Shown: piece by piece, positions 1,107 through 53,002 of the stretch | Layout: each line of letters opens with the position of its first letter | Position numbering within the stretch: position 1 is the stretch's first letter | NCBI GenBank assembly: GCA_963703935.1 | Contig: CAVPGA010000009.1 | Coordinates: 179,528 to 243,527, forward strand | Reading direction: 5' to 3' | DNA length: 64,000 bases | Source of the DNA: an uncultured Bacteroidales bacterium | Lineage (GTDB): Bacteria > Bacteroidota > Bacteroidia > Bacteroidales > VadinHA17 | Position numbers and translations under genes: made by a program | The notes under the pieces: model-generated | What the model was told of the DNA's origin: nothing | Databases searched by the model: none | What the model saw: only the letters and a program-made list of their open reading frames with translations

Positions 1107-2333
<1,227 letters not shown>

Positions 2334-2381
2334 TTATTAGGATGAAATGATATTGAGATAATTAGTAAAGTTTGATCCCCT

Positions 2382-3197
2382 TTATTTTCCCGGAATCCTT
2401 TTGGGGATAAAGAAATCTTTCTGTGTAAGGTTACATTTTTTTGCAATATACTTGCAATAATCCAGTCTCCCTGCTTTCTGATCGCGGGTATCAGAGCCAA
2501 AAGCAAATTTCAGGCCCTGGTCCTTAGCCATGTTTATAAACTTCTCATGTGGCGTGTGAGCCAGGTCGTTTATCTCAATGTTGATATTTTTCTTCTTTAA
2601 AGCTGAAATTATCTGCTGCATACGTGCCTCTGTCCATAAAGTATAGTAATCACGGGCTATGCAAACCGGCAGAAAGAGCGGCCATCCCAGTGTAGTGAGG
2701 GGTTCGTTGTTGTTGATGACTTCAAGCGTATGTGCCATATAGACCTCCATGAACTTATCTTGATCATCAACATAAGTATCAAAATTCCAAATACGCAGGG
2801 TTTCATTATAACTGTTCCCCATAGGCAGAGTCTGGGCATCCATAAGTACATAGTCAAGCTGAGACAGAGCTGCCGGAGAAAAGTTTTTGGACCATCCCGG
2901 ACTCATCGGCTGCAAACCTATGTATACAGGATATGGACGGAGTTTGTCAATAAAAATTTTCAGGCTGGCATCATCCCTGACCCGATATCCGGGATTTTCA
3001 ACAATGCCAAATTGGATGTTTGTTCTTTTGGCAATATCCATGATAACATCAATAGTAAAAGTATCAGTAGTATGAACATGCAGGTCCATAAGTGGAAATT
3101 CGTTGTTGCTACTGGTAATTTCATTACTTAAAAGTGGTGATACAGCCAACATCCCGCCGGCTATACCTGCATTTTTTATGAAAGTCCGTCGTTGCAT
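2382..3197 (-). CDS. Tat-exported PHP/amidohydrolase-type metal-dependent phosphoesterase
   Basis: 271-aa ORF with a twin-arginine signal (MQRRTFIKNAG) and a DLHVHT metal-ligand motif. Confidence 0.5.
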   Translation of the reverse strand: MQRRTFIKNAGIAGGMLAVSPLLSNEITSSNNEFPLMDLHVHTTDTFTIDVIMDIAKRTNIQFGIVENPGYRVRDDASLKIFIDKLRPYPVYIGLQPMSPGWSKNFSPAALSQLDYVLMDAQTLPMGNSYNETLRIWNFDTYVDDQDKFMEVYMAHTLEVINNNEPLTTLGWPLFLPVCIARDYYTLWTEARMQQIISALKKKNINIEINDLAHTPHEKFINMAKDQGLKFAFGSDTRDQKAGRLDYCKYIAKKCNLTQKDFFIPKRIPGK

Positions 3198-3374
3198 AAT
3201 AGTAATTTTTTGTTTTGTTAGTTTATTTACAATAACTGACAGCCTGCCTGACTGTACCTGTTAGTTGTAAATGTATAAATTAGTTTACTTGTAAACAGTT
3301 AAATTTAATTAAACAGAGTAACAATGTGAAAAGGGTGGCCGGTGCATCGTGGTATACAAGACCAACGAGTACCC

Positions 3375-3404
3375 TTTGCCAATAAGTATTTTTCTATATT
3401 TTTG
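3375..3404 (+). promoter_or_regulatory. Candidate Bacteroidota sigma-A promoter (-33 TTTG / -7 TAnnTTTG)
   Basis: TTTG lies at 3375-3378 and TATTTTTG at 3397-3404. The spacing is about 19 nt, and the -7 element is 37 nt upstream of the ATG at 3441. Confidence 0.35.
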
Positions 3405-3440
3405 ACAGAAATTCTTTTTTCTTAATTAAAAACAAGCCGG

Positions 3441-4685
3441 ATGACCAACCTTAGATTATTAAGCTTTATTCTCATATTGCTGATCACAGACTCCCTGTCT
3501 TTTACGCAAGCCCAAAACTGGCCATGCTGGCGCGGTCCAAACGGAGATGGAACCAGTACCGAAACCAATTTGCCGGTAAAGTGGGATTCAGTTACTAATG
3601 TGATATGGAAAATCCGGGTACCGGGTACAGGTTATTCTTCACCTATCGTCTGGAAAGACAGGATTTTCATGACGACAGCTTTTCCCGAAACACAGGAGAA
3701 AGTTCTGCTTTGCTATGATTCCAAAAGCGGCAATCTGTTATGGAGAAAAACCGTGCTCAAAAACTCATTCGAAAATAAACACGATAACAACAGTTTTGCT
3801 TCAGGCACACCCTCAACCGACGGCACACGGGTTTATGTGTCTTTTCTGGATGGTCAGGATATCGTGGTATGTGCATATGACTTTTCAGGAAAACAGGTCT
3901 GGCTGCAGCGACCCGGTACATTTTTAAGTCCGCATGGTTACAGTTGTTCGCCGGTGTTATTTGAAGATAAGGTAATAATTAACGGTGATAGCCAGGGGGA
4001 TTCTTTTGTCGCTGCATTAAGCAGAACAGATGGCCATATAATCTGGAAAGTTCCGCACGAGAAGCCATCACATAGTTTTAGCACTCCCATTTTCAGGAAA
4101 ATGGCCGGAAAAATGCAGATGATTTTTTGTGGTAACAGGGAAATTGCTTCCTATAATCCCGGCGATGGTTCGCGATACTGGTTTGTAAGTGGCCCTTCTG
4201 AGGACTTTTGTTCCAGTCCTGTTTATAATGAAAAGTCAGGATTAGTGCTTGTCAGCAGTGCATGGCCGCTTCGTAATCTGGTGGCAGTAAGACCCGACGG
4301 ACAGGGTGATGTTACGAAGAGTCATGTTGCATGGCAAACCAGAAAAGGAGCTTATTATGTACCATCGCCAGTTTGTACTGATGATTATCTTTTTACCACA
4401 ATGACCACAGGTGAGGTTCACTGCATTGAAGTAGCTACCGGTAATATTCTCTGGACAAAAAATCTTGGATTGCAGTATCCTTCTCCCGTTCTGGCTAACG
4501 GCCTGGTTTACATGCCCAATGATGAAGGTGTAATAACTGTTATTAAACCAGGTCCCAGATTCGAATATGTTGCAAGAAATTCTATCGGCGAAAGAATGAA
4601 TGCTTCGCCAGCCATAAGCAATGGGAAAATCTACCTCCGGGGCTTTCAGCACCTTTACTGCATAGGTACAGAAGACGTGAAATGA
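3441..4685 (+). CDS. Secreted PQQ-like beta-propeller repeat protein (BamB/YVTN-like fold)
   Basis: 414-aa ORF with a signal peptide, a WPCWRGPNGDG motif and repeated propeller-blade pattern. Confidence 0.8.
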   Translation: MTNLRLLSFILILLITDSLSFTQAQNWPCWRGPNGDGTSTETNLPVKWDSVTNVIWKIRVPGTGYSSPIVWKDRIFMTTAFPETQEKVLLCYDSKSGNLLWRKTVLKNSFENKHDNNSFASGTPSTDGTRVYVSFLDGQDIVVCAYDFSGKQVWLQRPGTFLSPHGYSCSPVLFEDKVIINGDSQGDSFVAALSRTDGHIIWKVPHEKPSHSFSTPIFRKMAGKMQMIFCGNREIASYNPGDGSRYWFVSGPSEDFCSSPVYNEKSGLVLVSSAWPLRNLVAVRPDGQGDVTKSHVAWQTRKGAYYVPSPVCTDDYLFTTMTTGEVHCIEVATGNILWTKNLGLQYPSPVLANGLVYMPNDEGVITVIKPGPRFEYVARNSIGERMNASPAISNGKIYLRGFQHLYCIGTEDVK

Positions 4686-4716
4686 TCAGGTGAGAGCTGC
4701 ACCGGATTTATCTATA

Positions 4717-4900
4717 AAATGATGGAACCGCTCCGCGGTTCAACATTGGGACTTAGACAATTTCCCTATAATGATGGAACCGCTCTGCGGTTCAGATTAA
4801 GCAGGATGCTACAAAAAGTAATTACCGCGGAGCGGTTTCATTATTCTAGTAACTTCAATAATACAAAATATGAAAACCGCGGAGCGGTTACATTATTCAA
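4717..4900. repeat. Four REP-like palindromic units (two forward, two inverted)
   Basis: The units are AATGATGGAACCGCTC(C/T)GCGGTTCA at 4717-4743 and 4769-4796, and their reverse complement (ACCGCGGAGCGGTT(T/A)CATTATTC(T/A)AGTAACT) at 4824-4853 and 4875-4905. Each contains a 5-7 bp stem around a 3-nt loop. Confidence 0.85.
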
Positions 4901-4905
4901 GTAAC

Positions 4906-4972
4906 TCTCCCAGGAGAGAGGGGGAAGCCCCACCCTCTCTCGCGGTAACTTTAGGGAGAGGCCTTGCTGAAT
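4906..4972. repeat. GA/CT-word composite hairpin
   Basis: CTCTCCCAGGAGAGAGGGGGAAGCCCCACCCTCTCTCGCGG...GGGAGAGG. GAGAG(G) words face CCTCTC words. Confidence 0.6.
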
Positions 4973-5030
4973 AGTTAATTACATCCGGATGTTTATATAA
5001 AATAATAACTTACGATAATACATAAGCGCC

Positions 5031-5155
5031 CTTTTAATACGTTTTTCTTTAAAATAAAATATGTCTTTTAATACGTATTTCTTTTTAATTTAATATGTCT
5101 TTTAATACGTATTTCTTTTGAATTTAATATGTCTTTTAATACGTCTTTCTTCTTA
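5031..5155. repeat. 34-bp tandem repeat, about 3.6 copies
   Basis: The unit CTTTTAATACGT(A/T)TTTCTTT..AAT.TAATATGT starts at 5031, 5065, 5099 and 5133. Confidence 0.9.
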
Positions 5156-5259
5156 GCGTCTTAGCGTCTTTGTGGCATTCTTTTTTTTGGCCACAAAGGC
5201 ACTAAGGCACAAAGTTTATCTGCGAAAACCTGCCTACCCTGCCTACCGGCAGGCAGGCG
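5152..5259. repeat. Two adjacent composite hairpins (CTTAGCG/CTTTGTG words, then CTGCCTAC words)
   Basis: CTTAGCGTCTTAGCGTCTTTGTGGC, a T-rich loop, then GGCCACAAAGGCACTAAGGCACAAAG (5152-5214). This is followed by CCTGCCTACCCTGCCTACCGGCAGGCAGG (5229-5259). Confidence 0.85.
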
Positions 5260-5331
5260 CAAAGCCTAGCACCCATGATGAATTATGGGAATAGCTATCG
5301 GGATAGGGGTGAACAGGTGTAAATCCTTTTA

Positions 5332-5421
5332 CTACGGAGTTCACTGAGTTTCACAGAGTAAAACACGGAGTTTTAAAACAGTGGAACTCCGTCTTTACTC
5401 CGTTTTAACTCTGTGGTTAAA
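5332..5421. repeat. Composite hairpin built from CACGGAG/CACAGAG words
   Basis: CTACGGAGTTCACTGAGTTTCACAGAGTAAAACACGGAGTT, a loop, then AACTCCGTCTTTACTCCGTTTTAACTCTGTGGTTAAA. Confidence 0.8.
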
Positions 5422-5534
5422 TAATTGTTACCTTCTGATAGTAAATAATTTATGTTAAAGAGTTATATAATAGTTCGCAGAGAAATCCCAGGAACGCAAA
5501 GTTTTTAGCAGGACGAGCCTGACGAGATCAGATT

Positions 5535-6927: not shown

Positions 6928-9660
6928 ATGAGTATCAGGGCCTTATTTGCTGCTCTCTTCATATTTGTATTTTCTGTGGTTCATTCACAGGAGAAATATG
7001 TTGTTGACTGGGACTTTACCGGTCAATCATTCGAAGCATTTGTCCTGAAAGCTGAGTCGCGATATCATGTTAAATTCTTCTATAACAGGGAGTGGGTCAA
7101 AGATCTTACCCTTGGCAGCTACGGAGAGAAACGGTTGCTGAACGAGATACTTGACACACTTTTCATCGGGGAATCAATTAATTATTATTCGCTTGAGTCC
7201 GGGAATATTATCCTGACAAAATATTTCGCGGTTAAAATATTAAAAGACAGGCAGGTTGAGAACCGGAATTACATCCCGGGCATTGATTATTCCCAGGACG
7301 AAGGAGTGAAGAGTAACGGCGGAAACCTTGTAGTCGATATAGGAAATCCTGCTGAAAAGAACAGGACCGGTAATGTTACGATATCAGGGTATATTACAAA
7401 CCAGGAAACAAAGGAAAGCGTCGCCGGAGTAACTGTTTATATTCCAAAGCTTTCTGTCGGCACTATTTCGAATGCCTACGGATTTTACACAATGAGTGTA
7501 CCAAGGGGCAGTTATTCCGTGAGGTTCACCTTCATTGGGATGAAAGAAAAAACAATAGATCTGAATCTTTATGGCTCCGGAGAGCTTAACCTGGAAATGA
7601 TCAGCGTTCTGATTCCATTGAAGGAAGCTGTAATAACGGCTGAAAAGGACATTAAGCTGCAACGCCCTGAAGTTGGGGTTGAGAAAATAAATATCACCTC
7701 ATTCCGCCTGATGCCCACATCAATGGGTGAATCGGATATCACAAAGAGCGTTTTGCTTATACCGGGTGTCCAATCGGTTGGAGAAGGATCGGCAGGCTTC
7801 AATGTCAGGGGAGGTTCCGCCGACCAGAACCTGATCCTCCTCTATGGCGCCCCGGTCTATAATTCGTCACATTTTTTCGGGTTCTTTTCTGCAGTCAACC
7901 CTGACATTATAAAGGATGTTACCCTTTACAAGGGCGGGATTCCCGGAAAGTATGGCGGAAGGCTTTCATCTGTGCTTGACATTGTGCCCAGGGACGGTAA
8001 CAGGAGAGAATTTGCCGTCAATACAGGAATCAGTCCGATAACTACCCATTTTGTAGCTGAGGGACCCATTAAAACAGATTCTGTTTTCTATCTTGTAGCC
8101 GGCAGAACAACCTATTCAAACTGGGTGCTCGGACTCATGGAGAACCCTGCACTGGCGAACAGCCGGGTATCATTTTACGACCTTAATGCCAGGATAGCTT
8201 ATGATATTAACAAGAATAACAAACTTGATTTTTCAGCTTATTACAGTCACGATTCATTCAGGTTCAATTCAGATACAACATACAAGTACCGGAATAATAT
8301 TGTTTCCCTGCGATGGCGCCATTATTTCAGCAGCCGTTTTTTCTCAGCACTTACAATCAACAATAGTTTTTATAAGTACGATATATCAAGCCTGAGGGTA
8401 CCCCAGGAGGCTTTTGTCCTTACTCACAGGATCAACAGCACCGGGTTTAAAGCTGATTTTAACTGGTTTCCCGGAAGGAATGAAGTAAATTTCGGAACAG
8501 ACCTGACAAGGTATGATGTTATACCAGGCAACTATTTGCCGGAAGATGATTCATCAATTGTGATTCCCAATTCGATTGAAAGACAGAGAGCCATCGAGAC
8601 TTCACTCTATTTTGAGGATAAATATATTGTAACTGATTATCTTTCAGTTAATGCCGGTCTCAGGTTTACTTCATTTTTTGCATTGGGCCCGCAGACAGTT
8701 TACATGTATAATGCTGCTTACCCCAGGAGTATCTCATCAATTACCGACACAATCACTTTTGGCAGGAAAGACAATTATAAAACATATGCCGGTCCGGAAT
8801 TACGACTGTCAGCAAACTTCAGGCTGAACGATAACAGTTCCTTTAAGCTGAACTATAACCATACAAACCAATACCTGCATTTATTGTCAAACACCACTTC
8901 GATCTCTCCCAGCGATACCTGGAAACTCAGCGACTATCATCTGCAGCCCCAGTCATGCGACCAGTTTGCTGCCGGCTATTACAGGATGATCAATAAAAAT
9001 AAAATTGAAGCATCTGCCGAGATCTATTACAAAAAAATTGACAATATGATTGATTTCAAGGGAGGGACTAATCTTATAATGAATGAAAATGTTGAAAGAG
9101 ACCTGATAAATGTTTATGGCAAGGCTTATGGCCTTGAATTTCTGCTAAAGAAACCTGAAGGACGGACCCGCTGGAGTATCAGCTACACCTATTCCAGGGT
9201 ACTGATCCGGAGCAAAGGATCGTTCAGTGAGGAGCTTATTAATTCGGGAAACTGGTTTCCTGCTAATTTTGACAGACCGCACGACCTTATCCTTACTTTT
9301 AACTATCTCCATTCAAGGCGGGTGAGCATATCGGCGAATTATAATTTCAGCTCGGGCAGACCGGTAACATATCCTGTTTCTTCATATGCGATAGGCGATA
9401 TTGTGCTTACACACTATTCTGACAGGAATAAATACCGGTTACCATATTATTCCAGGCTTGATCTTTCGGTCAGGGTAAGCGGAGACCTCAGATCGAAAAA
9501 GATAGCGCATCCATACTGGATATTTTCAGTTTATAATGTGACCGGACGGGAAAATGTTTATTCGGTTTACTTTAAAAATGTAAAAAACACTGTAAGAGGA
9601 TATTATCTGACTGTTTTTGGAAGACCGATACCATCCATTTCGTTCAACTTTGACTTTTAA
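6928..9660 (+). CDS. TonB-dependent receptor with N-terminal STN-like and CarboxypepD_reg-like domains
   Basis: 910-aa ORF with a signal peptide. It has a CarboxypepD_reg-like segment (ISGYITNQETKESVAGVTVYI...GFYTMSVPRGSY) and a plug region (ITKSVLLIPGVQS...FNVRGG). A long beta-barrel ends in an aromatic residue (SFNFDF). Confidence 0.85.
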   Translation: MSIRALFAALFIFVFSVVHSQEKYVVDWDFTGQSFEAFVLKAESRYHVKFFYNREWVKDLTLGSYGEKRLLNEILDTLFIGESINYYSLESGNIILTKYFAVKILKDRQVENRNYIPGIDYSQDEGVKSNGGNLVVDIGNPAEKNRTGNVTISGYITNQETKESVAGVTVYIPKLSVGTISNAYGFYTMSVPRGSYSVRFTFIGMKEKTIDLNLYGSGELNLEMISVLIPLKEAVITAEKDIKLQRPEVGVEKINITSFRLMPTSMGESDITKSVLLIPGVQSVGEGSAGFNVRGGSADQNLILLYGAPVYNSSHFFGFFSAVNPDIIKDVTLYKGGIPGKYGGRLSSVLDIVPRDGNRREFAVNTGISPITTHFVAEGPIKTDSVFYLVAGRTTYSNWVLGLMENPALANSRVSFYDLNARIAYDINKNNKLDFSAYYSHDSFRFNSDTTYKYRNNIVSLRWRHYFSSRFFSALTINNSFYKYDISSLRVPQEAFVLTHRINSTGFKADFNWFPGRNEVNFGTDLTRYDVIPGNYLPEDDSSIVIPNSIERQRAIETSLYFEDKYIVTDYLSVNAGLRFTSFFALGPQTVYMYNAAYPRSISSITDTITFGRKDNYKTYAGPELRLSANFRLNDNSSFKLNYNHTNQYLHLLSNTTSISPSDTWKLSDYHLQPQSCDQFAAGYYRMINKNKIEASAEIYYKKIDNMIDFKGGTNLIMNENVERDLINVYGKAYGLEFLLKKPEGRTRWSISYTYSRVLIRSKGSFSEELINSGNWFPANFDRPHDLILTFNYLHSRRVSISANYNFSSGRPVTYPVSSYAIGDIVLTHYSDRNKYRLPYYSRLDLSVRVSGDLRSKKIAHPYWIFSVYNVTGRENVYSVYFKNVKNTVRGYYLTVFGRPIPSISFNFDF

Positions 9661-9666
9661 CCAATA

Positions 9667-10785
9667 ATGAGTTCACTAAGGATCATAGGATTAAGCATTT
9701 TTCTGGTAATGGTTGCCGGTTGCACTGTTGAATTCAATCCTGATTCGAATGAAAACAAGGAGCAGCTTGTGGTTGAAGGAATGATCACCGATCAGAACAG
9801 GGTAAACAGGATCAGGTTATCGAAATCCCAGTCCATTGGAAAACCTCTTGCATTTAAACCTGTAACCGGAGCCATCGTTACGGTTACCGATGAAAAAGGA
9901 ATTGTTACAACTCTCACGGAATCTCCCGCAGGTACATATTCTACAGATTCGACAGAATTCAGGGGACGGATCGGCGGCAGTTATTCGCTCAATATTAAAA
10001 TAAATAATGTGAATTATGTGACTGACTTTATTGAAATGAAACCTGTCCCGCCTATCACTTCGCTATATTATGAAAAAGTAGTTATTACCGCTTCACGGGA
10101 TACCACTGAGGTGGAAGAGGGATGCAGTATATATGTTGACAGTTATGATCCTTCCGGGAAGTGTCTTTTTTTCAGGTGGGACTATGCTGAAACCTGGGAA
10201 TACCGGATTCCCTACGCCGTTACAAACAGAGTCTGCTATGTCACTGAAAGGTCAGATGAGATCCTGATAAAAAATACCTCACTTTACAGCCAGGCCAGGG
10301 TTTCAAAATACCCGGTCCTTTTTATCTCAAATAAATCCGACAGGCTGAAAGAGAAATACAGTGTTCTGGTCAGGCAGTACTCCCTGAATGAAACAGAATA
10401 TAAGTTCTGGGAAAGGGTACAGAGTATTTCCCGGAACGTTGGTGATCTGTACGATATTACACCTATGGCAATACCGAGCAACATAAGACGTGGTGATGAT
10501 CCGAAGGAGACAGTTCTTGGTTATTTCAGCGTATCGGCAGTAACACAGAAAAGGCTGTTCATAAAAGATCATTTTTACGGATTGCCGCATTTTTTTATTT
10601 ATTGTGCAACCGATACAGCTGAAGGAGCACTGCCTGAAACGGGTCTGAATACTGAATACTGGGTGATTGAAGATTATGGGGATGAACTTCCCCCATTCTG
10701 GGTAATAACAACTTTCAGGGAGTGTGCTGACTGCACTACGAGGGGAACAGGCGTAATGCCATCGTTCTGGCTTGAGGACAGATAA
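9667..10785 (+). CDS. DUF4249-like lipoprotein (usual partner of this TonB-receptor class)
   Basis: 372-aa ORF with a lipoprotein signal (FLVMVAGC), 6 nt after the receptor gene. The family assignment is from recall of the conserved gene pairing. Confidence 0.55.
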   Translation: MSSLRIIGLSIFLVMVAGCTVEFNPDSNENKEQLVVEGMITDQNRVNRIRLSKSQSIGKPLAFKPVTGAIVTVTDEKGIVTTLTESPAGTYSTDSTEFRGRIGGSYSLNIKINNVNYVTDFIEMKPVPPITSLYYEKVVITASRDTTEVEEGCSIYVDSYDPSGKCLFFRWDYAETWEYRIPYAVTNRVCYVTERSDEILIKNTSLYSQARVSKYPVLFISNKSDRLKEKYSVLVRQYSLNETEYKFWERVQSISRNVGDLYDITPMAIPSNIRRGDDPKETVLGYFSVSAVTQKRLFIKDHFYGLPHFFIYCATDTAEGALPETGLNTEYWVIEDYGDELPPFWVITTFRECADCTTRGTGVMPSFWLEDR

Positions 10786-10793
10786 GATCAACG

Positions 10794-12549
10794 ATGAAAA
10801 GAATAGCTACACCGGTCATTATTGTTCTGTTTCTGGGTACTCTTTTTACAGCTTTCCGGCTTGAAGCTCAGGGCCTTACTAAAGTTGAACCTGCAGTAAG
10901 TCCGGAAGGATATTTACAGGCCACGGCAAGGGAACAGGTTTATTTGCAGATTGACAGGGGTATGTACATTGCAGGTGAGGATGTCTGGTTCAGCATTTAT
11001 ACCGTCGACCCGGAAACAGGAAAACTATCAGACCTGAGCGCTGTTGCATATATTGAATTACTGAATCCGTGGAATATGCCCGTTAGTTCAGTCACGGTTT
11101 CAGCTTACCGGAGGCAGGGGTGAGGGCAGTTTTCTCCTTCCCGATTCGGTCAGCTCGGGAACTTACACTATCAGGGCGTATACAAACTGGATAAAGAATT
11201 TCCTTCCTGACAATTGTTACATGCAGGATATTGATATCTGCAACCCTTTCAGGAGTTTTGACTTCTGGCGCAAAGCTGACCCTGCCGGATCATCTGATAA
11301 AAGACTTATCAATTTAACAGATAAAAAGAAGAGAACTGTAGATTTAAGGGCAGACACTATTTATAACAGACGGGAAAAAGTCACACTGAAAGTGCGAATT
11401 AGTAATGACATTGCTGATCAACCCGGAATTTCTGAAATGAGTATCGCTGTAACTCCGGCAGAAATTGCTTCAGACACCAGGTGGGAAAAATCTTTTATGA
11501 ATGTGCGAACAGATCCCAAACAATACAGCTTCGAGAGAGAAGGGCATTATCTATCCGGAAGAATAAAATACAGGGAGAGTAATTTTTCTGATTTTTCAGA
11601 TTTCCTTTTTATGTCCATCCAGGGGAAGGTAGCTGATTTTAAATATGCAGTCATAGATTCTGCAGGCCGGTTCACCTTTACCATGCCTGTAGATGATAAG
11701 ATGAGGAATCTGATCCTTCAGCCGGAAAATGCAAATAGTAACATGATACTTGAAATTGAACCATCGTTTTCATGGATCTTGCCGGAAACAAACAGTTACA
11801 GGGATTCTTTCAGTGATTCTCAGCTGGATGTGTTTTCAGACCTGAGTTTTAATTACCAGGCAGCAAAGATATATGGCAGCATAAGAAAAGAGCCTGTGAC
11901 AGATGGTGACACCGCCCTTAAAAAAAGAAGGTTTTACGGGATACCGGAGATGGAAATATTCCTGGATGATTATATCAGCCTGCCTGTGATGCAGGAGGTC
12001 TTTTTTGAACTTTTGCCCGGGATCATTCTGAGATCAAGAAAGACAGGATATGAATTAAAGATTACCAACCCTCTCACCGGAAATTTTTATGCAGAACCAC
12101 CTCTGGTAATGATAGATGGTGTGATAATCAATGACCTGACTGTTCTGGCTGACCTCAATCCGGAAATAGTTGAAAAGATTGAAGTTGTAAAAACACCTTA
12201 CCTGACCGGAGACCTCATCTTACACGGGATTGTAAATGTAATAACACGTTCGGGTGATTTCAGCAATATGACTATGCCTGATTATGCAGTTGTGCTGCCT
12301 TACAGGGTTATCGACAAACCCTGGACCTTTAATGCTCCGGACTATACTGACGAACAGAACAACCCGGGCAGGGTGCCCGACCTCAGGAATACTCTTTACT
12401 GGAATCCTTCGGTAAAAACAGATATCAAAGGTGAGGTTGAAATAGAATTCTGGACTTCGGACCTTCCAGGTAATTATACCATCAATATAAAGGGTATATC
12501 AGGAACCGGTGAAATCTTATCATTGGTTAAATCATTCATGGTCAGATAA
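10794..12549 (+). pseudogene. MG2-like N-terminus / plug-like C-terminus protein, interrupted by one frameshift
   Basis: ORF 10794-11123 (frame 3) continues in frame 1, which is open from 11065, as ...RFQLTGGRGEGSFLLPDSVSSGTYTIRAYTNW... into ORF 11221-12549. The shift lies near 11085-11097. The C-terminus contains MIDGVIINDLTVLADLNPEIVEKIEVVKTPY, which resembles a plug domain. Confidence 0.65.
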
Positions 12550-12553
12550 GAAT

Positions 12554-12624
12554 CTTTAAGTCACTTTGTGAACCTTCGTAAACCCCTGCCTCCGCTAGGC
12601 AGGTTGAGTACTTTGTGGTTAAAC
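12554..12624. repeat. Short member of the CTTTGTG composite-hairpin family
   Basis: CTTTAAGTCACTTTGTGAACCTTCGTAAA, then CCTGCCTCCGCTAGGCAGG, then GAGTACTTTGTGGTTAAAC. It shares words with the elements at 18869 and 51511. Confidence 0.6.
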
Positions 12625-12755
12625 AGATTATGAAAGCCCGGAATGCTGTAAATTTGACCACTGCAATCATATTAAGTTTTTTAAACGTCTCTTAATTAAT
12701 AAGCGCCAGATGATAACCTGAATTTGATTAAATTAGTTCATAATTTTATTTCACC

Positions 12756-16448: not shown

Positions 16449-17350
16449 CTATAAGCCAAGAGATTTGATATAATCACGGTTTCGCTGTGCGCATACTTTC
16501 GGATTGCCCATTCCGGGGAGTACATCCTGTTCAACAACAATCCATCCTGAGTATTTCTGATTATTAAGTTCTTTAACAATTGAAGGGAAATCAACAGATC
16601 CTTTTCCAATTCACAGAAAACACCGTTACCAACCGATTTAAAGTAATCCCATTTCTCTGTCCTCGATTTTTCAGCCAGTATCCGGGTGACAATCTTTAAA
16701 ATGAATATGCCAGATGCGGTCCTGTTGCTTTTTCAGTACTCTCAAGAGGATCACCTCCTCCAAACATATAATGACCCATATCCAGGACCAGTCCTACAAG
16801 TGAAGGATCGGTCAATGAGAGCAATGTGTCGATTTCTCGCTGGTGTTTCAACATATCCTGCACAATGATGATGAAAAACTGTTCGCAATCCTGTCTGCGT
16901 TTTTACTTCACGTGCAACCAGATCTGCACCTTCAGCAAAGACTTTCCATTCATCATCTGTAAGTCCCATTGATGGCGTTACCCTTCCGGCATTCAGGGTG
17001 CGTTCCTTTATACTGCCATTTTCATCCGCAAGTACAATAAATGCATTTTGTAACCTGCATCTGCCATCAGCTTTGCAGTTTTTACTGCAGTTTCGGCACC
17101 GGCAGCATGCCTTTGAGCGGTCTTTCAGAAATACCGGAACAAAAGCGCCAACCATTGCAAGAGAGCGTTTATCGAGCTCTTTTTTTAATTCTGACGGAAC
17201 AGTGGGCATAAAACCCCAGTCGCCAAGTTCAGTACCCTGATAACCTGTTTCCCGGATTTCATTAAGTACCTGTTCAAAACCGGCAGCTTTGCCTTCAAGG
17301 TCAAATTCAAGTACTCCCCATGAACATGGGGCATTGGCTATTTTAATCAT
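16449..17350 (-). pseudogene. iolE: IolE-like inosose dehydratase / sugar-phosphate isomerase TIM barrel, multiply frameshifted
   Basis: The N-terminus reads MIKIANAPCSWGVLEFDLEG. I traced six frame changes by hand. One example is HAAGAETAVKTAKLMADAGYK, which is readable only in another frame. The C-terminus [34 protein letters not shown]...DYIKSLGL* is also in another frame. Confidence 0.7.
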
Positions 17351-18860: not shown

Positions 18861-18868
18861 TTTTCTGA

Positions 18869-19046
18869 CTTTTAAATTCAGTACTTTGAGAATCCTTCGT
18901 GAATCCTTTGTGTAGCAATTCCCGAAAAGCTGGTCTTGACTAATTTACAGAGTCAATTACTTGGCTCTTTGTGGTAAAAAGAAATTAACCACAAAGGGTC
19001 ACAAAGGCTGTCACGAAGTAACACAAAGGAATACAATAAATTAAGC
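18869..19046. repeat. CTTTGTG composite-hairpin element, copy A (carries a ~53-nt internal insertion)
   Basis: It shares both arms with 51511-51640, including an identical 27-nt block, CCACAAAGGGTCACAAAGGCTGTCAC(G/C)AAG. It sits between iolD and iolA. Confidence 0.9.
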
Positions 19047-19088
19047 AATATTTATGAATTAAACAGGCTAAGTTATTGTTTTCTGTAT

Positions 19089-25886: not shown

Positions 25887-28629
25887 TCAACCAATCAACT
25901 CTTTGTGATTGGCAAGGTCATTATCAGGTACAATTACTGCTACCCATTGTTCGTCAATTGACTCTGTTTTTCCATGCCATTCGAGTGTTATTTCCCTCCC
26001 TGATTTTAAATTTATCTGTTTTGAAGATCTTTTAATTGTCAGGTTGCTGGTTCTGATAGCGAAATTGTGACTTCCGTTTCCCTGAATTTTTGCTGTAATA
26101 GTAACCTCACCATTATCTGAATCCACTTTTGAAACCTCAAAGTTAAATGCGTTTTCAGGCCGGAGGTCCGGATTATATGTTCCTTGAGTTTTTCCAAGGA
26201 CGGCAGTCATCCCTTTGATAGCTCCCACAACTCCGATCCACTGGCTTACAGGATGTACCCAGACCTCCTTATAAGTCCAGGTATTTTGAACCGGCCAATA
26301 TGGTACATCACTTTCTGCACGAGTCTGGATACCAACTGGAAGAGCACCTGCAATATCACCTGAGGAGGGTGTATATAAAGGTGGAAAGTCGTATCCTTCT
26401 CCATACATTGTGCTCTGTGAAAATGGATTGCGACCTACTATCCATTCTAACTGGAGGAGGGCAAGTTTCGCCGATTCCGGGTCAGAACGAAGACGGGACG
26501 CGTTACAGAGAGATTGCGCCTGTGGTAAAATAGTCCCGAAATGTCCTCTGTAATCCATCCATACAGGGAAAATGCGAAGGTAATATCCTTTGCCTAAATG
26601 GATTCCGTTTAAAACCTGCAGCCGGAACGACTCCTGCCTGCTTTCCGGTACCTGAAGGTAATCTTTGTCCTGTATATATGGACGAAGGCAGAACCCCATA
26701 GGGTTCAGTATATCTGGCAATTGTTTTCAGGTATTCTGAATGCAATGCCACCGCAGAATACCATTTCATCCATTCGGGACGATCGGGAAACGCCTCACAG
26801 AGTTTAGTGAGTGCAGCGATAATTTCGTTCTCCCTGCCGTTATGACAATAATGAAGGATATTTCTTTTTGCCGGGCCGGTGTAAAAGAAACCGGTTAATG
26901 GCACGTCCATTTTAGTGAGTTTCCGTTGCTGCGATTCAATTAAAATTTTCGACAGTTCTATTGCTTTGCCTGCATAGCGGTTATCTCCCGTGGCATACCA
27001 CAGCTCTACCGAAGCTAATATTCCGGCAGAAGCTGCCTCATGCAAAATGTTACCTGAATCGAATGATACGCTCCAAACTGCATTTGAAGCCGTATCTTCA
27101 TCAAAAACAAGCTTTTCAACAGCGAATTGCCAATCGGCTTTAGCCATTTTAAGTGAATAATTCGCCAGACGCTGATCTCTTTCTTTCAAAACTCTGTACG
27201 CTATAGCCTCAGCAGAGGAAGCTATAAAATTGGATTTAGATGTATTTTTCGCTATTGAGGTAACATCGTCAGAATCGCCTATAATTCCATTCGTTCTTCG
27301 ACTATTTACGGATCCTTCATTGCGAAATCCATCGCCAAAGCTTGTTTTCAGAATCCAGTCGAGACCCCATTGCGCTTCTTCAAGGAGTCGTTCAAAAAGA
27401 CGGGAGTCATCTCCCCTTTTGTGCATCTGTTCTGCAAAGCTGAACATTGCATACACAGCCTCACCTGTGTTGCGGAGCCCCTGTGTAAAATCACCGGCAT
27501 CATGCCACCCGCCATTGATGACCAGGCTTTTATTACCATGAACACAGGTCCAATCGCGATGACAAGTGCCGTGTGCACCGGGAATAGAAGTGCCACATCG
27601 CTCAACATAAAAAAAATTCAATGCCTTCCAGATTGTTTGCTCCCAGATGTCAGGACCGATACGAAAGGGCTGGGTTACTATTTTGCCTGCATCTATAAAG
27701 TATGTGCCACTTTGTTGAATCTCAGAAAAATCAAGGAGCTGAAATGTTCCCAAATGTGATGTAATGGTCTGGATTGGCTTTCTTAGTACTGTTTTGCCAG
27801 ATTCCTTATCAACTATTCTGAATTCAGTGCTTTTCAGATCATTTGCTATAGCACTTTTCGGAGATTCTGATTGGTAACCTGTATGACTAAAAGATATTCT
27901 TCCCTGCCAGACCGGCCATCCCTCAATGTAATCAGGTACTACTTTTTCAAGTTCCAGATCATCAAAATAAAAAACTAAAGTATCGGTAGTTTCAGGCTCA
28001 TTTCCGGACATAACAGAAGATATTTCAAACTTTGATATTTTGTCCCGTGCAACATTACCAATTTCCCAGACTATATGATTCCATTCGTGATTACGTAAGG
28101 TAATAGTATTCTCACCCTCCTGTCCGAAGAGTGCCGGCAACTTTTCCAAACCTTCATTAAAGAGCCTGAGCTCAAGCCAGTTTTGATAAGCCCCGGGATT
28201 ATCAGGATATATCCATAGGGATATTCTGTTGAAATTACTCCAATCCTCGTTTTTGAAAATACACCATATCCCTGCATTCCCCCAGCCCCGACCGCTTTTG
28301 GGACCAGGTCCATCTAATTTTGCAGGGAACTTTACCAGAAGAGAATTACTGCCGGAATGAGGTTTTTCATTGGAGAGTCTCATTTCAGCAACCATGGATT
28401 TTGATTCAGCTATTTTAGTCGTAATCCTTGAATCTACAAGTGAAATAGCTCCAGTCGTAAAAGGTACCCAATGACCTGTGTTTTCCATATCATCCAGAAT
28501 CCTGCTTTCCAGTACTTCCTTATTAAGCCACCTGTACAATGCCGAATTCTGAACATTTACCTGCATTGGCTCCTGTCCTCTCGTTGTTAAACAAACTGCC
28601 AACATTCCAATAATTATTCTTAATGTCAT
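25887..28629 (-). pseudogene. GH9 glycoside hydrolase with N-terminal accessory domains, one frameshift
   Basis: The likely start is at 28629 (MTLRIIIGMLAVCL, signal peptide). It carries the GH9 motif NGGWHDAGD. ORFs 26503-28689 and 25887-26720 overlap and join at ...ARYTEPYGVLPSSIY / IQDKDYLQVPES. The shift is near a TATATA tract at 26670-26695. Confidence 0.7.
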
Positions 28630-28900
28630 TTTGAATGTAGTTTTTAATTCACTGAGATTATCCCGGTCAGAATGAAAGTTACCATCCAATATACTTATTT
28701 AAATTCTATTTTCATGCGTAAAATATAGCAGGATTTAGCGCCATTATTACAGTTTCATAACATCATGCAAATTGATTTATATTTTATAATTTTAATGGAA
28801 CCAATAACCTTACTATTGATGTTACTTTTAAATTTATTATTTTTCCCGGGTACCCGAGTGTAACTTTATTCAGTTAACTGACTCTAATCAATATGCAGTG

Positions 28901-32773: not shown

Positions 32774-35042
32774 ATGAGGATGAGAAAAATAGCAATGAAA
32801 TTTAACAAAGTCGCTTTTCGAATTCTGATGATAGCTTTTTTGTCAGGTCTTCAGACTAATATTATTAGTCAGGAGGCGATCAGGATTAAAAGGCTTACTC
32901 TCCCCGTTGAATTTGATGGTATACCGAAAGAAGCATCATGGGAGGCTCTTGATCTTTTTTCATTGACTATGCATAAGCCAAATTATGGGGCTCAGCCTTC
33001 AGAAAAAAGTGAAGTCAGGATCGGATACGATAATGAATACCTGTGGGTGGGTGCCAGTCTTTATATGCAGGATGCATCGAAAATCTTTGCCGTCACAAAG
33101 AAAAGGGATGAAGAACTTTTTGATTATGATGCATTTGGAATTATCCTTGACACTTATAATGACAATGAAAACGGATCTGGCATTTTTTACAACTCCAACC
33201 GGTCTCAGGACAGATTATACAATTTCAAATGATGCTTCACAAAATGGTGGCGGTCCTGGAATGAATTCCGCAATGAATTTAAGCTGGAACACTTTCTGGG
33301 ATGTAAAGACAACAAGGGATGATAAAGGATGGTATGTTGAAATGAGGATCCCTTTTTCAAGCCTGAAATTCAAGCCTGAAAATGATATTGCAACTATGGG
33401 CCTTATAATTACCCGCAATATAAGTTCAAACAATGAGACGGACACATATCCGGCGATTGATCCGAAATATGGGTTTATGGCGCCAAATAAACCTTCACTA
33501 GCCAAGACTATAGAAATAGAGGGAGCCAGACCGTCAAAACCTGTCTATATTTCACCTTATGTCATCGGAGGTTTATCAAGAGACTGGTCTATAAATGAAG
33601 GAGAGACCGCATATGTTAAAGAAGATGATCCCGAATACAATGCCGGGATTGACATAAAATACAATATCAACAGCAATCTTACTCTTGACCTGACTGCAAA
33701 CACCGATTTTGCGCAGGTGGAAGCTGACGATCAGCAGGTAAATCTTACAAGGTATTCACTTTTTTTTCCTGAAAAGAGAATGTTCTTCCAGGAACGGTCA
33801 AGCCTGTTCGATTTCAGTCTTGGCGGACATTCCGACAACCTGTTTTACAGCAGGAATATTGGAATCGCCGGTCGAGAACTTATAAGATTATATGGAGGAG
33901 CCAGGCTGGTCGGGAGGATGGGAAAATGGGACATGGGATTTATGAATATGCAGACCGAAGAACATGAGGAGACCCCGGGAGAGAATTTTGGTGTTCTGAG
34001 AATGCGCAGGCAGGTTATAAATCCGAATAGCTATGTCGGAGGAATTATGACCTCGAGAATTGGAATGAACGGGGATCAGAATATTGCATACGGACTTGAT
34101 GGTATTTTCAGACTATTTGGTGATGATTATCTTAACGTAAAGTGGTCTCAGACCTACGACAGCAAGATCGGAAACAAAATGAATTCGCTTGATCCGTCAT
34201 TTATTATGATCGATTGGGAAAGGAGATCAGAAGAGGGATTTGCATACAATGTGAATTATACCTATTCCGGTCAGAAATTCAATCCGGGCACAGGATTCGT
34301 TATGCGAGGAGGTGTTCAGGGTTTGAATGCCGGAATGTTATACGGGTGGATTCCCGGTGAGAAATCAAGACTGTTTAATTATAATGTCAATATCAGGGCT
34401 GAACGTTACACAAGACTGGAAGATGGAAATCTTGAATCAATGCGGATCTCTCCGGGCTTTGAAATCAATACAAAGAAAAATTTTCATGCAGAAATTTCGC
34501 TGGAATACCTGGAGGAAGGAGTTCTTCAAAATTTCCCCTTATCCGAAAATATCTGGATAAATGCCGGTAATTATTCTTTCCTGGGATTTGAAGGCAGATT
34601 CGGGACCTCGGAATCAAGACTCATTTCTTTCAGGGGAGAAATTTTCGGTGGACAATTTTACGATGGAAACAGAATAGGTCTCGAAGTTGAATCCAATATT
34701 AATTTCTCTTCAAGTTTCAAACTTTCGGGGGGATATGAATTCAATGCCATCAGGTTTCCTGAAAGGGAAATCAACAATTCCCTCAATATCCACTCTGTAA
34801 ACATGAAAGCATTATATATGTTCAGCACAAAACTCTCTGCAACACTACTCGCTCAATATGTAAATACCGAAGATGAACTGATCACTAATTTCAGATTGCG
34901 GTATAATCCCCGCGAAGGGAATGATTTCTACCTGGTATTTAACGATTTCAGGGGTATAGCCAACAGTTATTCCATACCAGAACGACCAAAATTCTTCAAC
35001 AAGACAATAATGGTCAAGTATACCCATACCTTCATTCTTTAA
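32774..35042 (+). pseudogene. CBM9-like / DUF5916-type outer-membrane-associated protein, one frameshift
   Basis: ORF 32774-33232 and ORF 32985-35042 join at DTYNDNENG / LAFFTTPTGLRTD. This is colinear with the intact paralog at 48907-51186 (DTYDDNENGVVFYTTADGLRFD). The shift is near 33170-33180. Confidence 0.7.
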
Positions 35043-35141: not shown

Positions 35142-35597
35142 ATGAATATTTTCAAATTTTTTCTTAGCCTTACTATCACTATAGCAATGCTTTTGCTGAT
35201 GGATCCGAGATCATTCTATGGCCTTGCCTTTCATGAATGGGCAGGGCTGATAATCGGAATATTTTTCATTCTTCACAAGATCCTTAACTGGGGCTGGATT
35301 AAAGAAAGTCACGGTTGGGTTTTTCGTGAGATGCCCGGAAGAGCCAGGTTTAATTATCTCCTTGATGTTCTGCTTCTGGCAGGCATCACACTTATGATAA
35401 TCAGCGGAATAGCTATTGCACGGACAATTGACTTTTCGTGGCTCAATCTGGGCGGTTCACGGATATTCTGGAGAGTTATGCATACAAGTTCTTCATTCAT
35501 AACGCTCGCATTATTCGGCATCCATCTTGGATTGCACTGGAACTGGGTTCTTTTGAGGTTACACATTAAAAAAGCAAAAAATGGTAAAGAAAATTAG
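35142..35597 (+). CDS. DUF4405-like four-helix membrane protein, putative di-heme cytochrome b
   Basis: 151-aa ORF with four predicted TM helices. It has two H-x13-H motifs, HEWAGLIIGIFFILH and HTSSSFITLALFGIH. Confidence 0.65.
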   Translation: MNIFKFFLSLTITIAMLLLMDPRSFYGLAFHEWAGLIIGIFFILHKILNWGWIKESHGWVFREMPGRARFNYLLDVLLLAGITLMIISGIAIARTIDFSWLNLGGSRIFWRVMHTSSSFITLALFGIHLGLHWNWVLLRLHIKKAKNGKEN

Positions 35598-36129
35598 CTT
35601 CCTGATATTGTCAGTCGGAATACTGATCACCGGGGTGATATCATTCAATAAACTAAGCTTTTGGGACAGAAGCGTCAGGATATTTAGCTTTAGCTCAGAC
35701 GCCTCTTTCGGGGGAAGAATGGGCAGAGGTCCGGAAGGCAGAGGAGAATATAGTGAAATGGGGAGATTTAACAGGCAGGAAAGACAAGAGGATGGATTTG
35801 TTCGGCCGGAAATGCGTGATCTTCCCGACAGTTTAAGGGGGAGATTCGAAGTCAGGGAAGGTCGTACTGGTACACGAAACAGGGACAGAAATATGCCCGA
35901 CAGCTTAAGGCAGCAGTTTGGCCCGGGAAATGGGGAGCGAATGGAAAGAGGCTCTTTTGAGCGGGGAATGAGAAACGGTGAAGGAAGGGGAAGAGGTGAA
36001 TTCCCGGGAGGTAAAAAAATAAACCTCAAAAACGTCCTCTGGTTCCTTGCCGTCTTTGCATCCTTTACTGTGCTGGCAATATATATTGATAAAGCATTTT
36101 GTCTGATCCGGAAAAGAAAACTGAGATAA
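35581..36129 (+). CDS. Bitopic membrane protein with an Arg/Gly/Glu-rich disordered central region
   Basis: 182-aa ORF that overlaps the upstream gene by 17 nt. It has TM segments at both ends. The motif PDSLR(G/Q)(R/Q)F is repeated, and there are RGRG/GEGRG tracts. Confidence 0.55.
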   Translation: MVKKISFLILSVGILITGVISFNKLSFWDRSVRIFSFSSDASFGGRMGRGPEGRGEYSEMGRFNRQERQEDGFVRPEMRDLPDSLRGRFEVREGRTGTRNRDRNMPDSLRQQFGPGNGERMERGSFERGMRNGEGRGRGEFPGGKKINLKNVLWFLAVFASFTVLAIYIDKAFCLIRKRKLR

Positions 36130-36131
36130 TC

Positions 36132-36206
36132 CATCGGTAGTAAAGAAGAGTTGCTTAATACATTTGATTTCTTGTCCGGAAGATATTTTAAATTCAAGTA
36201 CCTTTG
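36132..36206 (+). other. Gene relic: 58-nt fragment of a paralog of the 47235-47759 gene, fused to the lead motif of the CTTTGTG element
   Basis: 36132-36189 matches 47462-47519 at 53 of 58 positions (CATCGGTAGTAAAGAAGAGTTGCTTAAT...). It is followed by AAATTCAAGTACCTTTG. Confidence 0.8.
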
Positions 36207-36209
36207 AGG

Positions 36210-51186: not shown

Positions 51187-51510
51187 TTACAGGTTAGGTA
51201 GGTTTTATCAAATTAAATTCCCCTAAAATACAAATTAAGGTGAATCTATCGATGATGGTAATAGAAAAGAAATTTTCTTTCGAAATAGCACATCAGTCAA
51301 ACAATTTCTGTCTGGACAAAAAGTCGGTTTTGTATGGTATGTTATTATTTACCTCCGGATGGAACAGGAATAAAAATGCCACACCTTACCGGTTCTCCGA
51401 AATCGGGACTTCCATCCTTTTTAAATGTAAATGATGTCCGATGAGGATGCAACCATAACCATCTCATAAGCTAAAAAACATTACTTTTGAGTTAATCAAG
51501 CTTAGCATAA

Positions 51511-51640
51511 CTTTTAAAATTCAAGTACTTTGTGAATCCTTCGTGTAATCCTTTGTGTGACTTTGTGGTAAGAAGAATTTAACCACAAAGGGTCACAAAG
51601 GCTGTCACCAAGGTATCACAAAGGAATACAATAAATTCAA
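51511..51640. repeat. CTTTGTG composite-hairpin element, copy B
   Basis: CTTTTAAAATTCAAGTACTTTGTGAATCCTTCGTGTAATCCTTTGTGTGACTTTGTGGTAAGAAGAATTTAACCACAAAGGGTCACAAAGGCTGTCACCAAGGTATCACAAAGGAATACAATAAATTCAA. The arms are complementary word by word. Confidence 0.9.
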
Positions 51641-51700: not shown

Positions 51701-53002
51701 ATGCCTGAAATGAGAAACAGCAGAAGAAAATTCCTTAAAAATGCCAGTGCCGCAGGTATGGGAATTGTCGGGACCAGAATAACCGGTTTATTTCCCGGAA
51801 CAACTGATAATATTTCCTTAATCCGTGTGCCTGAAATAAATATTCAGCAAATTAGTCCCGGAGGGAATGGTCTTAGCATAATAGGACAATATGGTCAGTG
51901 GGCTGCTTCGCTTACAGAAAAAATACCCTCTCTTTCATTCAGAAGAAAGGAGTGGAATGACCTTAAGAAATGGCATTTGGCTGCCGATGCAAAAGTCAGA
52001 GAGCGGCTGGCAATACCTGTTATAGAAGGCACACCTGAGGTGGTAGTCAAAAAACAATATATATATGACTCTTTACATGTTGAGGAGCTTTCATGGAAAC
52101 TGCCCTATGGTCAGCCTGCCGAAGCCATACTTCTCAAACCCGCAGAAGCAAAGACTCCATTGCCGGGAATACTTGCATTTCATGACCATGGAGGAAACAA
52201 GTATTTCGGGACAAGGAAGATAACCAGGACAAGCCAGGATCAGCACCCGCTTATGAAGGAACACCAGCAAAATTATTACAGCGGCCGGGCATGGGCAAAT
52301 GAGATTGCAAAAAGAGGTTATGTAGTATTGGTTTCAGATGCTTTTCCCTTTGCCTCCCGGCGGGTTCTTCTGAAGGACATACCCGAAAATCTCCGGAACG
52401 GACTAAGTGACGAAAATCCCGAGGAACCTATAAATATTGAAGCTTATAACAGATGGGCAGGGAATCATGAACATATAATGGCAAAATCGTTGTTCAGCGC
52501 CGGCACGACCTGGCCCGGAGTATTTCTTGCCGAGGACAGGATAGCCCTGGATATTCTTTGTGCCCGGAAAGATGTCGACAAGGAAAAGATCGGATGCGGT
52601 GGCCTGTCAGGCGGAGGTATGCGGACTGTATTCACCGGAGGCCTCGACAGCAGGATCAAGTGTGCGGTATGTGTAGGTTTTATGACAACCTGGAAAGATT
52701 TTGTCCTCAATAAATCCTTTACCCATACCTGGATGACCTATGTTCCGTTGCTGCCGAATGAACTTGATTTCCCTGAGATCCTTGGATTGCGTGTCCCGCT
52801 TCCGACGCTGGTCCTCAATGATAATGATGACAATCTTTATACTCTGTCTGAAATGAAAGCAGCCGAAACAATTCTTCTCGAGATCTACAGAAAAGCAGGA
52901 GCAGCTGATAAATTCAAATGTTCATATTACCCGGGTGAACACAAGTTCGATGCCGACATGCAAACAGAAGCTTTCAATTGGTTTGACAGGTGGCTTAAAT
53001 AG
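51701..53002 (+). CDS. Tat-exported alpha/beta hydrolase (acetyl-xylan-esterase / dienelactone-hydrolase-like)
   Basis: 433-aa ORF with a twin-arginine signal (SRRKFLKNASAAGMG) and a nucleophile elbow (GGLSGGG). Confidence 0.65.
   Translation: MPEMRNSRRKFLKNASAAGMGIVGTRITGLFPGTTDNISLIRVPEINIQQISPGGNGLSIIGQYGQWAASLTEKIPSLSFRRKEWNDLKKWHLAADAKVRERLAIPVIEGTPEVVVKKQYIYDSLHVEELSWKLPYGQPAEAILLKPAEAKTPLPGILAFHDHGGNKYFGTRKITRTSQDQHPLMKEHQQNYYSGRAWANEIAKRGYVVLVSDAFPFASRRVLLKDIPENLRNGLSDENPEEPINIEAYNRWAGNHEHIMAKSLFSAGTTWPGVFLAEDRIALDILCARKDVDKEKIGCGGLSGGGMRTVFTGGLDSRIKCAVCVGFMTTWKDFVLNKSFTHTWMTYVPLLPNELDFPEILGLRVPLPTLVLNDNDDNLYTLSEMKAAETILLEIYRKAGAADKFKCSYYPGEHKFDADMQTEAFNWFDRWLK

Follow-up and report, generated by a model that had tools for sequence, protein, structure and literature searches.

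A probable miniature inverted-repeat transposable element family with 4-bp target duplications in uncultured Bacteroidales

The DNA analysed here, referred to throughout as the window, is a 64-kb stretch from an uncultured Bacteroidales bacterium (contig CAVPGA010000009.1). At ~16.4–24 kb its minus strand carries an inositol (iol) cluster of iolE, iolA, iolD, iolC, iolB and a transporter gene, with iolD encoding a thiamine pyrophosphate (TPP) enzyme and iolA an aldehyde dehydrogenase. Between iolD and iolA lies one copy (copy A) of a structured intergenic element, and a second copy (copy B) sits between the divergent genes 48907–51186 (minus strand) and 51701–53002 (plus strand). An earlier note on this DNA had described a two-copy structured element without coding capacity, with copy A inside the iol operon and copy B in a divergent promoter region. 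Both placements are correct, the operon being however heavily frameshifted, and the only open reading frame (ORF) that overlaps the element is a chance one of 35 amino acids. The two copies were found where they had been described, are built of CTTNGTG and CACNAAG words, fold as long imperfect hairpins and can be aligned throughout except for an extra 53-nt block in copy A (18913–18965), which the earlier note had also seen.

The two copies have the same plan: an apical hairpin (CTTTGTGG-TAA..TTA-CCACAAAG) stands between four CTTNGTG words (c-words) to its left and four CACNAAG(G) words (W-words) to its right, the words spaced 10–12 nt apart; in copy B an 11-nt period was detected by Tandem Repeats Finder at 51584–51624. 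For the family as a whole, the left end reads C-TTTTAAAATTCA(T/A)GTAC and is followed by a left arm of four degenerate CTTNGTG words at 10–12-nt spacing, the apex is GGTAAAAAGAATTTAACC, the right arm consists of four words CACNAAGG, and the right end is ...GGAATACAATAAATTAAGAATATTTATGAATTAAACAGG. The arms are inverted over ~60 nt, and the terminal 14 nt are inverted partners at 10 positions. The window contains the word CACAAAGG 11 times (2.1 expected), eight of them inside copies A and B, and clusters of at least three words number three in the window and none in shuffles. Copy A had originally been ended at 19046. Since the line-up of relatives shows a repeated unit longer than that first described, copy A is now taken as 18869–19067, the trailing AAGCAATATTTATGAATTAAACAGG being part of the element and the true end 21 nt further on. 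The canonical form is ~150 nt, compared with 199 nt for copy A and 127 nt for copy B. A profile hidden Markov model built from family members and run against the window gave matches to copies B (E = 7e-43) and A (E = 3e-28) only.

Relatives were collected by a GTDB scan, one genome per species, with the query CACAAAGGGTCACAAAGG (at least 118 loci) and by a scan of JGI metagenomes with a subfamily-specific 25-mer (14 loci); related loci are labelled L001 and so on. Close relatives were found in uncultured Bacteroidales metagenome-assembled genomes (MAGs; L019, L025, L033, L092 and L095) and in sediment- or wetland-type metagenome contigs (L122–L135). In these Bacteroidales MAGs and metagenomes the element occurs in at least 10 distinct contexts at ~90–95 % identity, and similarity among the relatives ends sharply at both sides in at least 10 unrelated contexts. 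Two copies are present in the 64-kb window, and one MAG holds three loci (L033, L092 and L112).

Contrary to the earlier note, in which no target-site duplications had been seen, 4-bp direct repeats do flank the insertions. Eight independent insertions from the window, GTDB MAGs and metagenomes were compared. The left and right 4-mers are TTAA/TTAA at L092, L123, L124 and L127, CTAA/CTAA at L128, TTAG/TTAG at L019, ATAA/ATAA at copy B (right side read from a close strain) and CTGA/CTAA at copy A, and are therefore identical in seven insertions and alike at three of four positions in the eighth. When the right flanks were permuted, 274 of 200,000 permutations did as well (p = 0.0014). Because the pairs CTAA/CTAA, TTAG/TTAG and ATAA/ATAA are not palindromic, the flanks are not part of the inverted repeat. 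Counted as targets, TTAA (four times), CTAA (twice) and TTAG (once) fit the consensus YTAR, and ATAA (once) does not.

The site of copy A could be compared with its empty counterpart in a close strain (L143), found by protein search on a 228-kb ENA contig with 97–98 % identical proteins, and in an 89 % relative (L144). In both, the iolD–iolA gap is only 27–33 nt. In a three-way alignment the insertion is precise, adding to the window exactly the 199 nt of the element and 4 bp: the empty site on the minus strand reads AATAACTTAT/AAGAAATGACA, and the filled site of the window, on the same strand, reads AATAACTTAG, then the 199 nt, then TCAGAAAAATGACA. The insertion point is 8 nt upstream of the iolA ATG (18860–18858, minus strand) and 21 nt downstream of the iolD stop codon. 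Copy A is a recent, lineage-specific insertion that is absent from close relatives. Copy B, by comparison, is also present at the orthologous place in the close strain (L136) and is an older insertion common to both. The L136 orthologue keeps the canonical right end ...AAGAATATTTATAAATTTAAACGGG followed by ATAA. In the window this end has been lost by a 37-nt deletion, so that the start given earlier for copy B (51511) stands and its end moves from 51640 to 51637. Because its right end has been lost in the window, copy B is probably immobile.

Other members show decay and nested insertions of a kind that is typical of selfish DNA. Right-half copies were found at L126, L131 and L135 and an arm-only copy at L129. 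Contigs L025 and L095 end within copies of the element, which thus break MAG assemblies. A GC-rich palindrome is nested at the apex of the L092 copy; a GC-rich palindrome in the window itself (5229–5258, CCTGCCTACCCTGCCTACCGGCAGGCAGG) agrees over 30 nt, at 100 % identity, with one nested in that copy (3163–3192). In two different copies (L122 461–543 and L132 3236–3320) the 3' end of a group II intron (RF00029 domains V–VI, 54–56 bits) abuts model position 55/56, just before GGTAAAAAG. As the intron ends exactly at the apex in two different copies, it appears to target the element. Internal blocks were also found. The L136 orthologue of copy B has a block of 72–74 nt (9755–9828) at the position of the 53-nt block of copy A; both lie after left-arm word three and before word four, each contains a hairpin of its own, and the two are similar at their edges only (..AAGCTGG.. 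and ..GGC(T/C)C). Neither block is repeated elsewhere in the window or the collected related loci. At L033 (3380–3600) a copy stands between ~70-nt direct repeats that contain part of the left end plus flank (..GGATTCA(C/T)AAGGTAGAAT.TTAAAA.TCAGATCACCAGACTGTACAAATTCTC..), an arrangement that points to duplication at this place or to a composite of the element and another repeat.

[quoted passage not shown] The coordinates of its copies and of other word elements in the window are collected in Table 1.

Table 1. Parts of the two putative MITE copies, their flanking duplications and other word elements in the window
Feature	Position	Strand	Remarks
Word hairpin, CTTAGCGT CTTAGCGT CTTTGTGG / CCACAAAGG CACTAAGG CACAAAG, with unrelated flanks	5152..5215	+	same word superfamily; not matched by the MITE profile
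Word half-element, c-words only, with nested CCTGCC..GGCAGG palindrome	12554..12624	+	a different word element is present there in the close strain
Left target-site duplication of copy A (CTGA)	18865..18868	+	flank in the filled/empty alignment; 3/4 match to CTAA at 19068-19071
Copy A, putative MITE, 199 nt, complete ends, between iolD stop and iolA start (both minus strand)	18869..19067	+	site empty in L143 and L144; profile E = 3e-28; fold -46 kcal/mol, z = -3.4
Copy A left end: lead CTTTTAAATTCAGTAC and three c-words, CTTTGAG, CTTCGTG, CTTTGTG	18869..18912	+	
Copy A internal block, 53 nt, own small hairpin TTGACT..AGTCAA	18913..18965	+	not in canonical copies
Copy A apical hairpin CTTTGTGGTAA-AAAGAAA-TTAACCACAAAGG	18967..18997	+	
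Copy A right-arm word array (module H) CCACAAAGG GTCACAAAGG CTGTCACGAAG TAACACAAAGG	18990..19029	+	common to Chloroflexota palindromes
Copy A right end AATACAATAAATTAAGCAATATTTATGAATTAAACAGG	19030..19067	+	last 14 nt pair inverted with left end, 10/14
Right target-site duplication of copy A (CTAA)	19068..19071	+	
Left target-site duplication of copy B (ATAA)	51507..51510	+	ATAA also follows the intact right end of the L136 orthologue
Copy B, putative MITE, 127 nt: four c-words, apex, four W-words	51511..51637	+	right end cut by 37-nt deletion; profile E = 7e-43

A 4-bp duplication of YTAR is a hallmark of IS5, and the duplicated targets of the family resemble it. The MITE would be moved in trans, by a DDE transposase that an autonomous insertion sequence (IS) elsewhere in the genome provides, and the 4-bp YTAR targets suggest that this transposase may belong to the IS5 family. 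The iterated words would then be its sub-terminal binding sites. Because their sequence is conserved and the variable middle base does not covary, the simplest reading of the words is as recognition sites, of a transposase for instance. The long hairpin would be a by-product of the inverted arms rather than a selected RNA structure, and at -46 kcal/mol just upstream of iolA in the iol transcript it would be expected to have a polar or neutral effect. The MITEs described in Porphyromonas, also a member of the Bacteroidales, derive from IS5-family elements (PMC4596501). As leads only, the core of the IS5-family terminal inverted repeat (TIR), TGCAAAGG/CCTTTGCA (PMC4596501), is loosely like the words CACAAAGG/CCTTTGTG, and the close strain carries a word element made of TGCAAAG/CGCAAAG words.

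Several observations weigh against a MITE of this kind. Pfam scans found no transposase among the window ORFs scanned, and when 2894 ORFs from 118 loci were compared all against all, neither a transposase nor any other protein turned up recurrently beside the related elements. No autonomous element with the same ends was detected in the window, the collected loci, or plasmid, phage and viral collections; scans with both ends gave a single match in a viral collection, which was rejected as a chance match in a coding region. The termini are unlike the IS5-family TIRs quoted in PMC4596501, and the terminal inversion is weak when taken alone, 676 of 2000 AT-rich shuffles scoring as well by local alignment. 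Among the duplications, ATAA falls outside YTAR and that of copy A carries one mismatch (CTGA/CTAA), while the filled and empty sites also differ by one A in a poly-A run. Finally, because the same module recurs in palindromes of other phyla without target duplication, this transposon alone does not account for the words.

Most of the GTDB matches listed (at least 118) are in fact not from Bacteroidales. They come from Anaerolineales and other Chloroflexota, Planctomycetota (Fimbriiglobus and Frigoriglobus), Verrucomicrobiota and Terriglobia. In 86 cases among these matches, hereafter Chloroflexota-type, the module TTnACCACAAAGG-GTCACAAAGG-nnCACGAAGG makes up the 5' half of a palindrome and its reverse complement the 3' half; the polarity of the Bacteroidales elements is opposite, with the module 3' of the apex (14 cases among the matches listed). 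The Chloroflexota-type hairpins are intergenic, 77 % of them between co-directional genes, with median distances of 16 nt from the preceding stop codon and 31 nt to the following start. They persist at orthologous sites across species with their words shuffled, and the genes that they bracket are housekeeping genes. No target-site duplication was found around them, their TTnA/TnAA flanks belonging to the palindrome. Across the 86 hairpins (L004–L121) the middle bases of opposed words are complementary in 48 of 117 pairs against 61 ± 4 expected, which is rarer than chance, and G:T and A:C mismatches are equally frequent (28 each). Since complementarity is less frequent than chance, the arms are not simple inverted copies, and perfect palindromes seem to be avoided. 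A distinct subfamily in several genera of Anaerolineales (L004, L006, L015, L024, L077, L082, L089, L091, L103 and L107) has the conserved lead TTGACAATGTCACATTTCAAAACCTTTTACCACAAAG and the loop AGAGCAAAATGCTAAAACCAAAGGTTT.

The words also occur outside palindromes. The 8-mer CACGAAGG forms perfect tandem arrays of 19 copies at L052 (5348–5530) and at least 12 at L084 (5–123), each with six complementary words ~50 nt further on and upstream of a gene. With their perfect tandem 8-mers and complementary words upstream of a gene, these arrays resemble contingency loci. On a 12-kb phage contig (L001, IMG/VR UViG_3300021090_000215) all 15 CAC(A/G)AAGG words are on the gene strand and lack an inverted partner. 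Four of them fall within the long ORF 2025–4094 (3302, 3321, 3467 and 3486), and the remaining eleven lie in short intergenic leaders (for example 1961–1987, 4104–4131, 7977–8003, 8831–8856 and 9700–9724), the last word often 4–8 nt before the start codon. Words directly upstream of start codons were seen at 1980, 4124, 7987, 8452, 8849, 9707 and 9717. At a Shine–Dalgarno spacing of 3–12 nt, 4 of the 15 phage words pass, and several more arrays stand just before starts by eye. As a general Shine–Dalgarno sequence the words were rejected, given that only 5 % of bacterial words lie 3–12 nt before a long ORF, below the figure for generic AAGG. A cluster of DnaA boxes was likewise rejected on inspection: TTAACCACA agrees with TTATCCACA at 8/9 positions, other words agree at ~5/9, and the conserved AAGG lies outside the box. 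Neither a CRP-like TGTGA..TCACA site, nor the Bacteroidota -33/-7 promoter (TAnnTTTG), nor a sigma-70 promoter fits by inspection.

The earlier note had left three options open, namely a mobile or repetitive element, a structured noncoding RNA and a protein-binding site. Folding gave long hairpins on both strands of each copy (-45 to -47 kcal/mol), with z = -3.4/-3.7 for copy A and -6.5/-8.0 for copy B and no shuffle as good, and copy A is certainly transcribed if the iol operon is. Such a fold could belong to a structured noncoding RNA or to a cis-regulatory RNA (a terminator, attenuator or processing site) located in the esterase gene's 5' region as well as in the iol transcript, an explanation that is nevertheless highly improbable because the element is not in the same operon of relatives and shows no Rfam family, covariation, strand bias or T-run. 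At gathering thresholds, Rfam matched nothing in the whole window or in 10 related loci except the group II intron in L122 and L132, and at E <= 1 the two copies matched only chance microRNA or small nucleolar RNA hairpins. RNAalifold on 16 members gave a covariation term of +0.76 with one compensatory pair among 21, and no covariation links the middle bases of opposed words. Of 51 related hairpins that lie between co-directional genes, 28 fold better and 22 worse on the sense strand (p = 0.6), and neither copy has a terminator-like stem with a T-run. Protein binding survives from the three options only in that the words may serve as recognition sites. That the element is primarily a functional array of double-stranded DNA sites (four plus four, spaced by roughly a helical turn) bound by a regulator or a nucleoid protein, and has been co-opted at promoters like the one around copy B, would suit the 10–12-nt word spacing, the conservation of the words within the family and across phyla while spacers and middle base vary without covariation, and the presence of module H alone, without an inverted partner, in bacteria and a phage. 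It is quite unlikely all the same, as the spacing is not constant across the superfamily (8–9 nt in other members, 8 nt in tandem arrays), copy A is a recent arrival in a decayed operon and not in close relatives, solo arrays in bacteria show no orientation preference to genes (17 sense and 13 antisense), and no candidate protein was found. Binding of a host protein may be a secondary role of the element.

Much of the cross-phylum material would sit well with a REP/REPIN-like (repetitive extragenic palindrome) element that a domesticated HUH (Y1) transposase (RAYT) recognises in single-stranded hairpin form and spreads, and that serves the host by stabilising mRNA or structuring the nucleoid. 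The wider word superfamily is REP-like and nearly always intergenic, the Chloroflexota-type hairpins are kept at orthologous sites across species and flank housekeeping genes without target-site duplication, and the site at 12.5 kb in the window carries different word elements in two 98 % identical strains. For the window family, however, both this mode of spread and the attendant host roles are unlikely. The family duplicates 4-bp targets, whereas single-strand transposition of the HUH/RAYT type (IS200/IS605) makes no target duplication. At 150–200 nt the element is also much longer than REP palindromes (20–40 nt), no Y1_Tnp domain was found in the window ORFs scanned, and neither of the heads GTAG and CGTC, which define REP super-families (PMC3733652), is present. 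A MITE moved by a transposase in trans is thus the preferred reading of the window family.

Around this MITE family, the word itself may have a wider history. We consider it possible, though on balance doubtful, that CAC(A/G/T)AAGG, usually headed TT(A/C/T)ACCAC, marks an undescribed superfamily of intergenic repeats that spans phyla and has a shared trans-acting recogniser. No description of the word family was found in Rfam or in the searchable literature, which was queried both with the sequences and for accounts of REPs or MITEs from these phyla. The word occurs in REP-like palindromes (in Chloroflexota, Planctomycetota, Verrucomicrobiota and Terriglobia), Bacteroidales MITEs, tandem 8-mer arrays and phage leader arrays, and the recogniser may be a widely transferred transposase, a domesticated nuclease or a conserved host protein. 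The window MITE may be one lineage that captured, or arose from, the word module. The same short word makes intergenic palindromes in at least five phyla and is present in a phage; if one factor reads it, this would explain a very abundant, unannotated class of intergenic DNA in environmental bacteria.

Many frameshifts run through the iol cluster, which is 67–90 % identical to that of the close strain, compared with 97–99 % DNA identity and almost no indels in its flanks. Sequencing error is an unlikely cause of the frameshifts, in that the indels lie outside homopolymers, mismatches dominate the divergence and the flanks are nearly free of indels. Because of these non-homopolymer indels and the dominance of mismatches, and because iolD is about equidistant (77–80 %) among the window, L143 and L144, the cluster looks like a divergent, decaying allele and not a sequencing artefact. 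On the MITE reading, what had been an unexplained element becomes a dated event, the landing of a transposon 8 nt upstream of iolA in a decaying inositol operon, and its exact ends, target preference and profile offer a means of masking or annotating such repeats in MAGs of uncultured Bacteroidales.

Other repeats were noted in the window. The region 12554–12624, previously taken for a shorter relative, is a word half-element with a nested GC-rich palindrome and not a MITE copy. At this site, after the gene 11221–12549, the window (12558–12637) and the ~98 % identical close strain (L143, 11764–11951) carry different word elements, a c-word half-element in the former and a full palindrome of TGCAAAG/CGCAAAG words in the latter, which implies rapid turnover of word elements. 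As for the solitary lead motifs reported in the earlier note, that at 36190 is an exact 14-mer (TTTTAAATTCAAGTACCTTTGAGG, within 36186–36209), and a further match at 17303–17316 has one mismatch; 0.14 were expected, and both are too short for a call by the profile. They could be remnants of MITE ends. The intergenic region 4686–5534 is rich in repeats, with four GGAACCGCTCCGCGGTTC-type palindromes in alternating orientation (4715–4906), a 34-nt tandem repeat of 3.6 copies (5031–5151), and the word hairpin (5152–5215) and GC-rich palindrome (5229–5258) already mentioned. Direct repeat pairs at 36132–36189/47462–47519 and 36260–36299/47862–47901, 88–91 % identical, point to paralogous gene segments ~11.4 kb apart, and split-looking genes were seen at 25887–28689, 32774–35042 and 35559–37556.

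Several known systems offer points of comparison with the window family. The BOX elements of Streptococcus pneumoniae consist of short reiterated boxes in modules of 45–59 nt that form long hairpins; no transposase of their own is known, and they are not known to make a defined duplication. They are like the window family in their modular boxes and long hairpins, and unrelated to it in sequence and phylum. REP, BIME and REPIN sequences with their RAYTs are high-copy, imperfect intergenic palindromes found mostly between co-directional or convergent genes, and the GTAG/CGTC super-families have a short motif common across phyla (PMC3733652), which fits the Chloroflexota-type relatives. The window family differs in having target duplications, in being 4–5 times longer and in its lack of GTAG/CGTC heads, and a RAYT was not found. 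Correia elements (CREE/NEMIS) of Neisseria are also hairpin-forming MITEs, of 100–150 nt, that lie between genes and in operons, occur as size variants with internal deletions and can affect transcript processing. They have a TA duplication, 26-bp TIRs and an IHF site (PMC10969869), whereas the window family has a 4-bp duplication and none of those motifs. From the IS5-derived MITEs of Porphyromonas gingivalis (BrickBuilt, MITE464/PgRS and MITE239; PMC4596501) and the ATR of Neisseria, the window family is set apart by its termini, CTTTTAAAATTCAT / ATGAATTAAACAGG, which are unlike GAGACCTTTGCA. The internal repeats of BrickBuilt are 23-nt tandem 'bricks' rather than 10-nt words in inverted arms, and its duplications are variable rather than fixed at 4 bp (PMC4596501). 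The likeness to these P. gingivalis and Neisseria elements, which stands without demonstrated sequence homology, lies in their plan: they too are small, non-coding and strictly intergenic, with TIRs, internal short repeats, long predicted stem-loops and mobilisation in trans, and Porphyromonas, like the host of the window family, belongs to the Bacteroidales.

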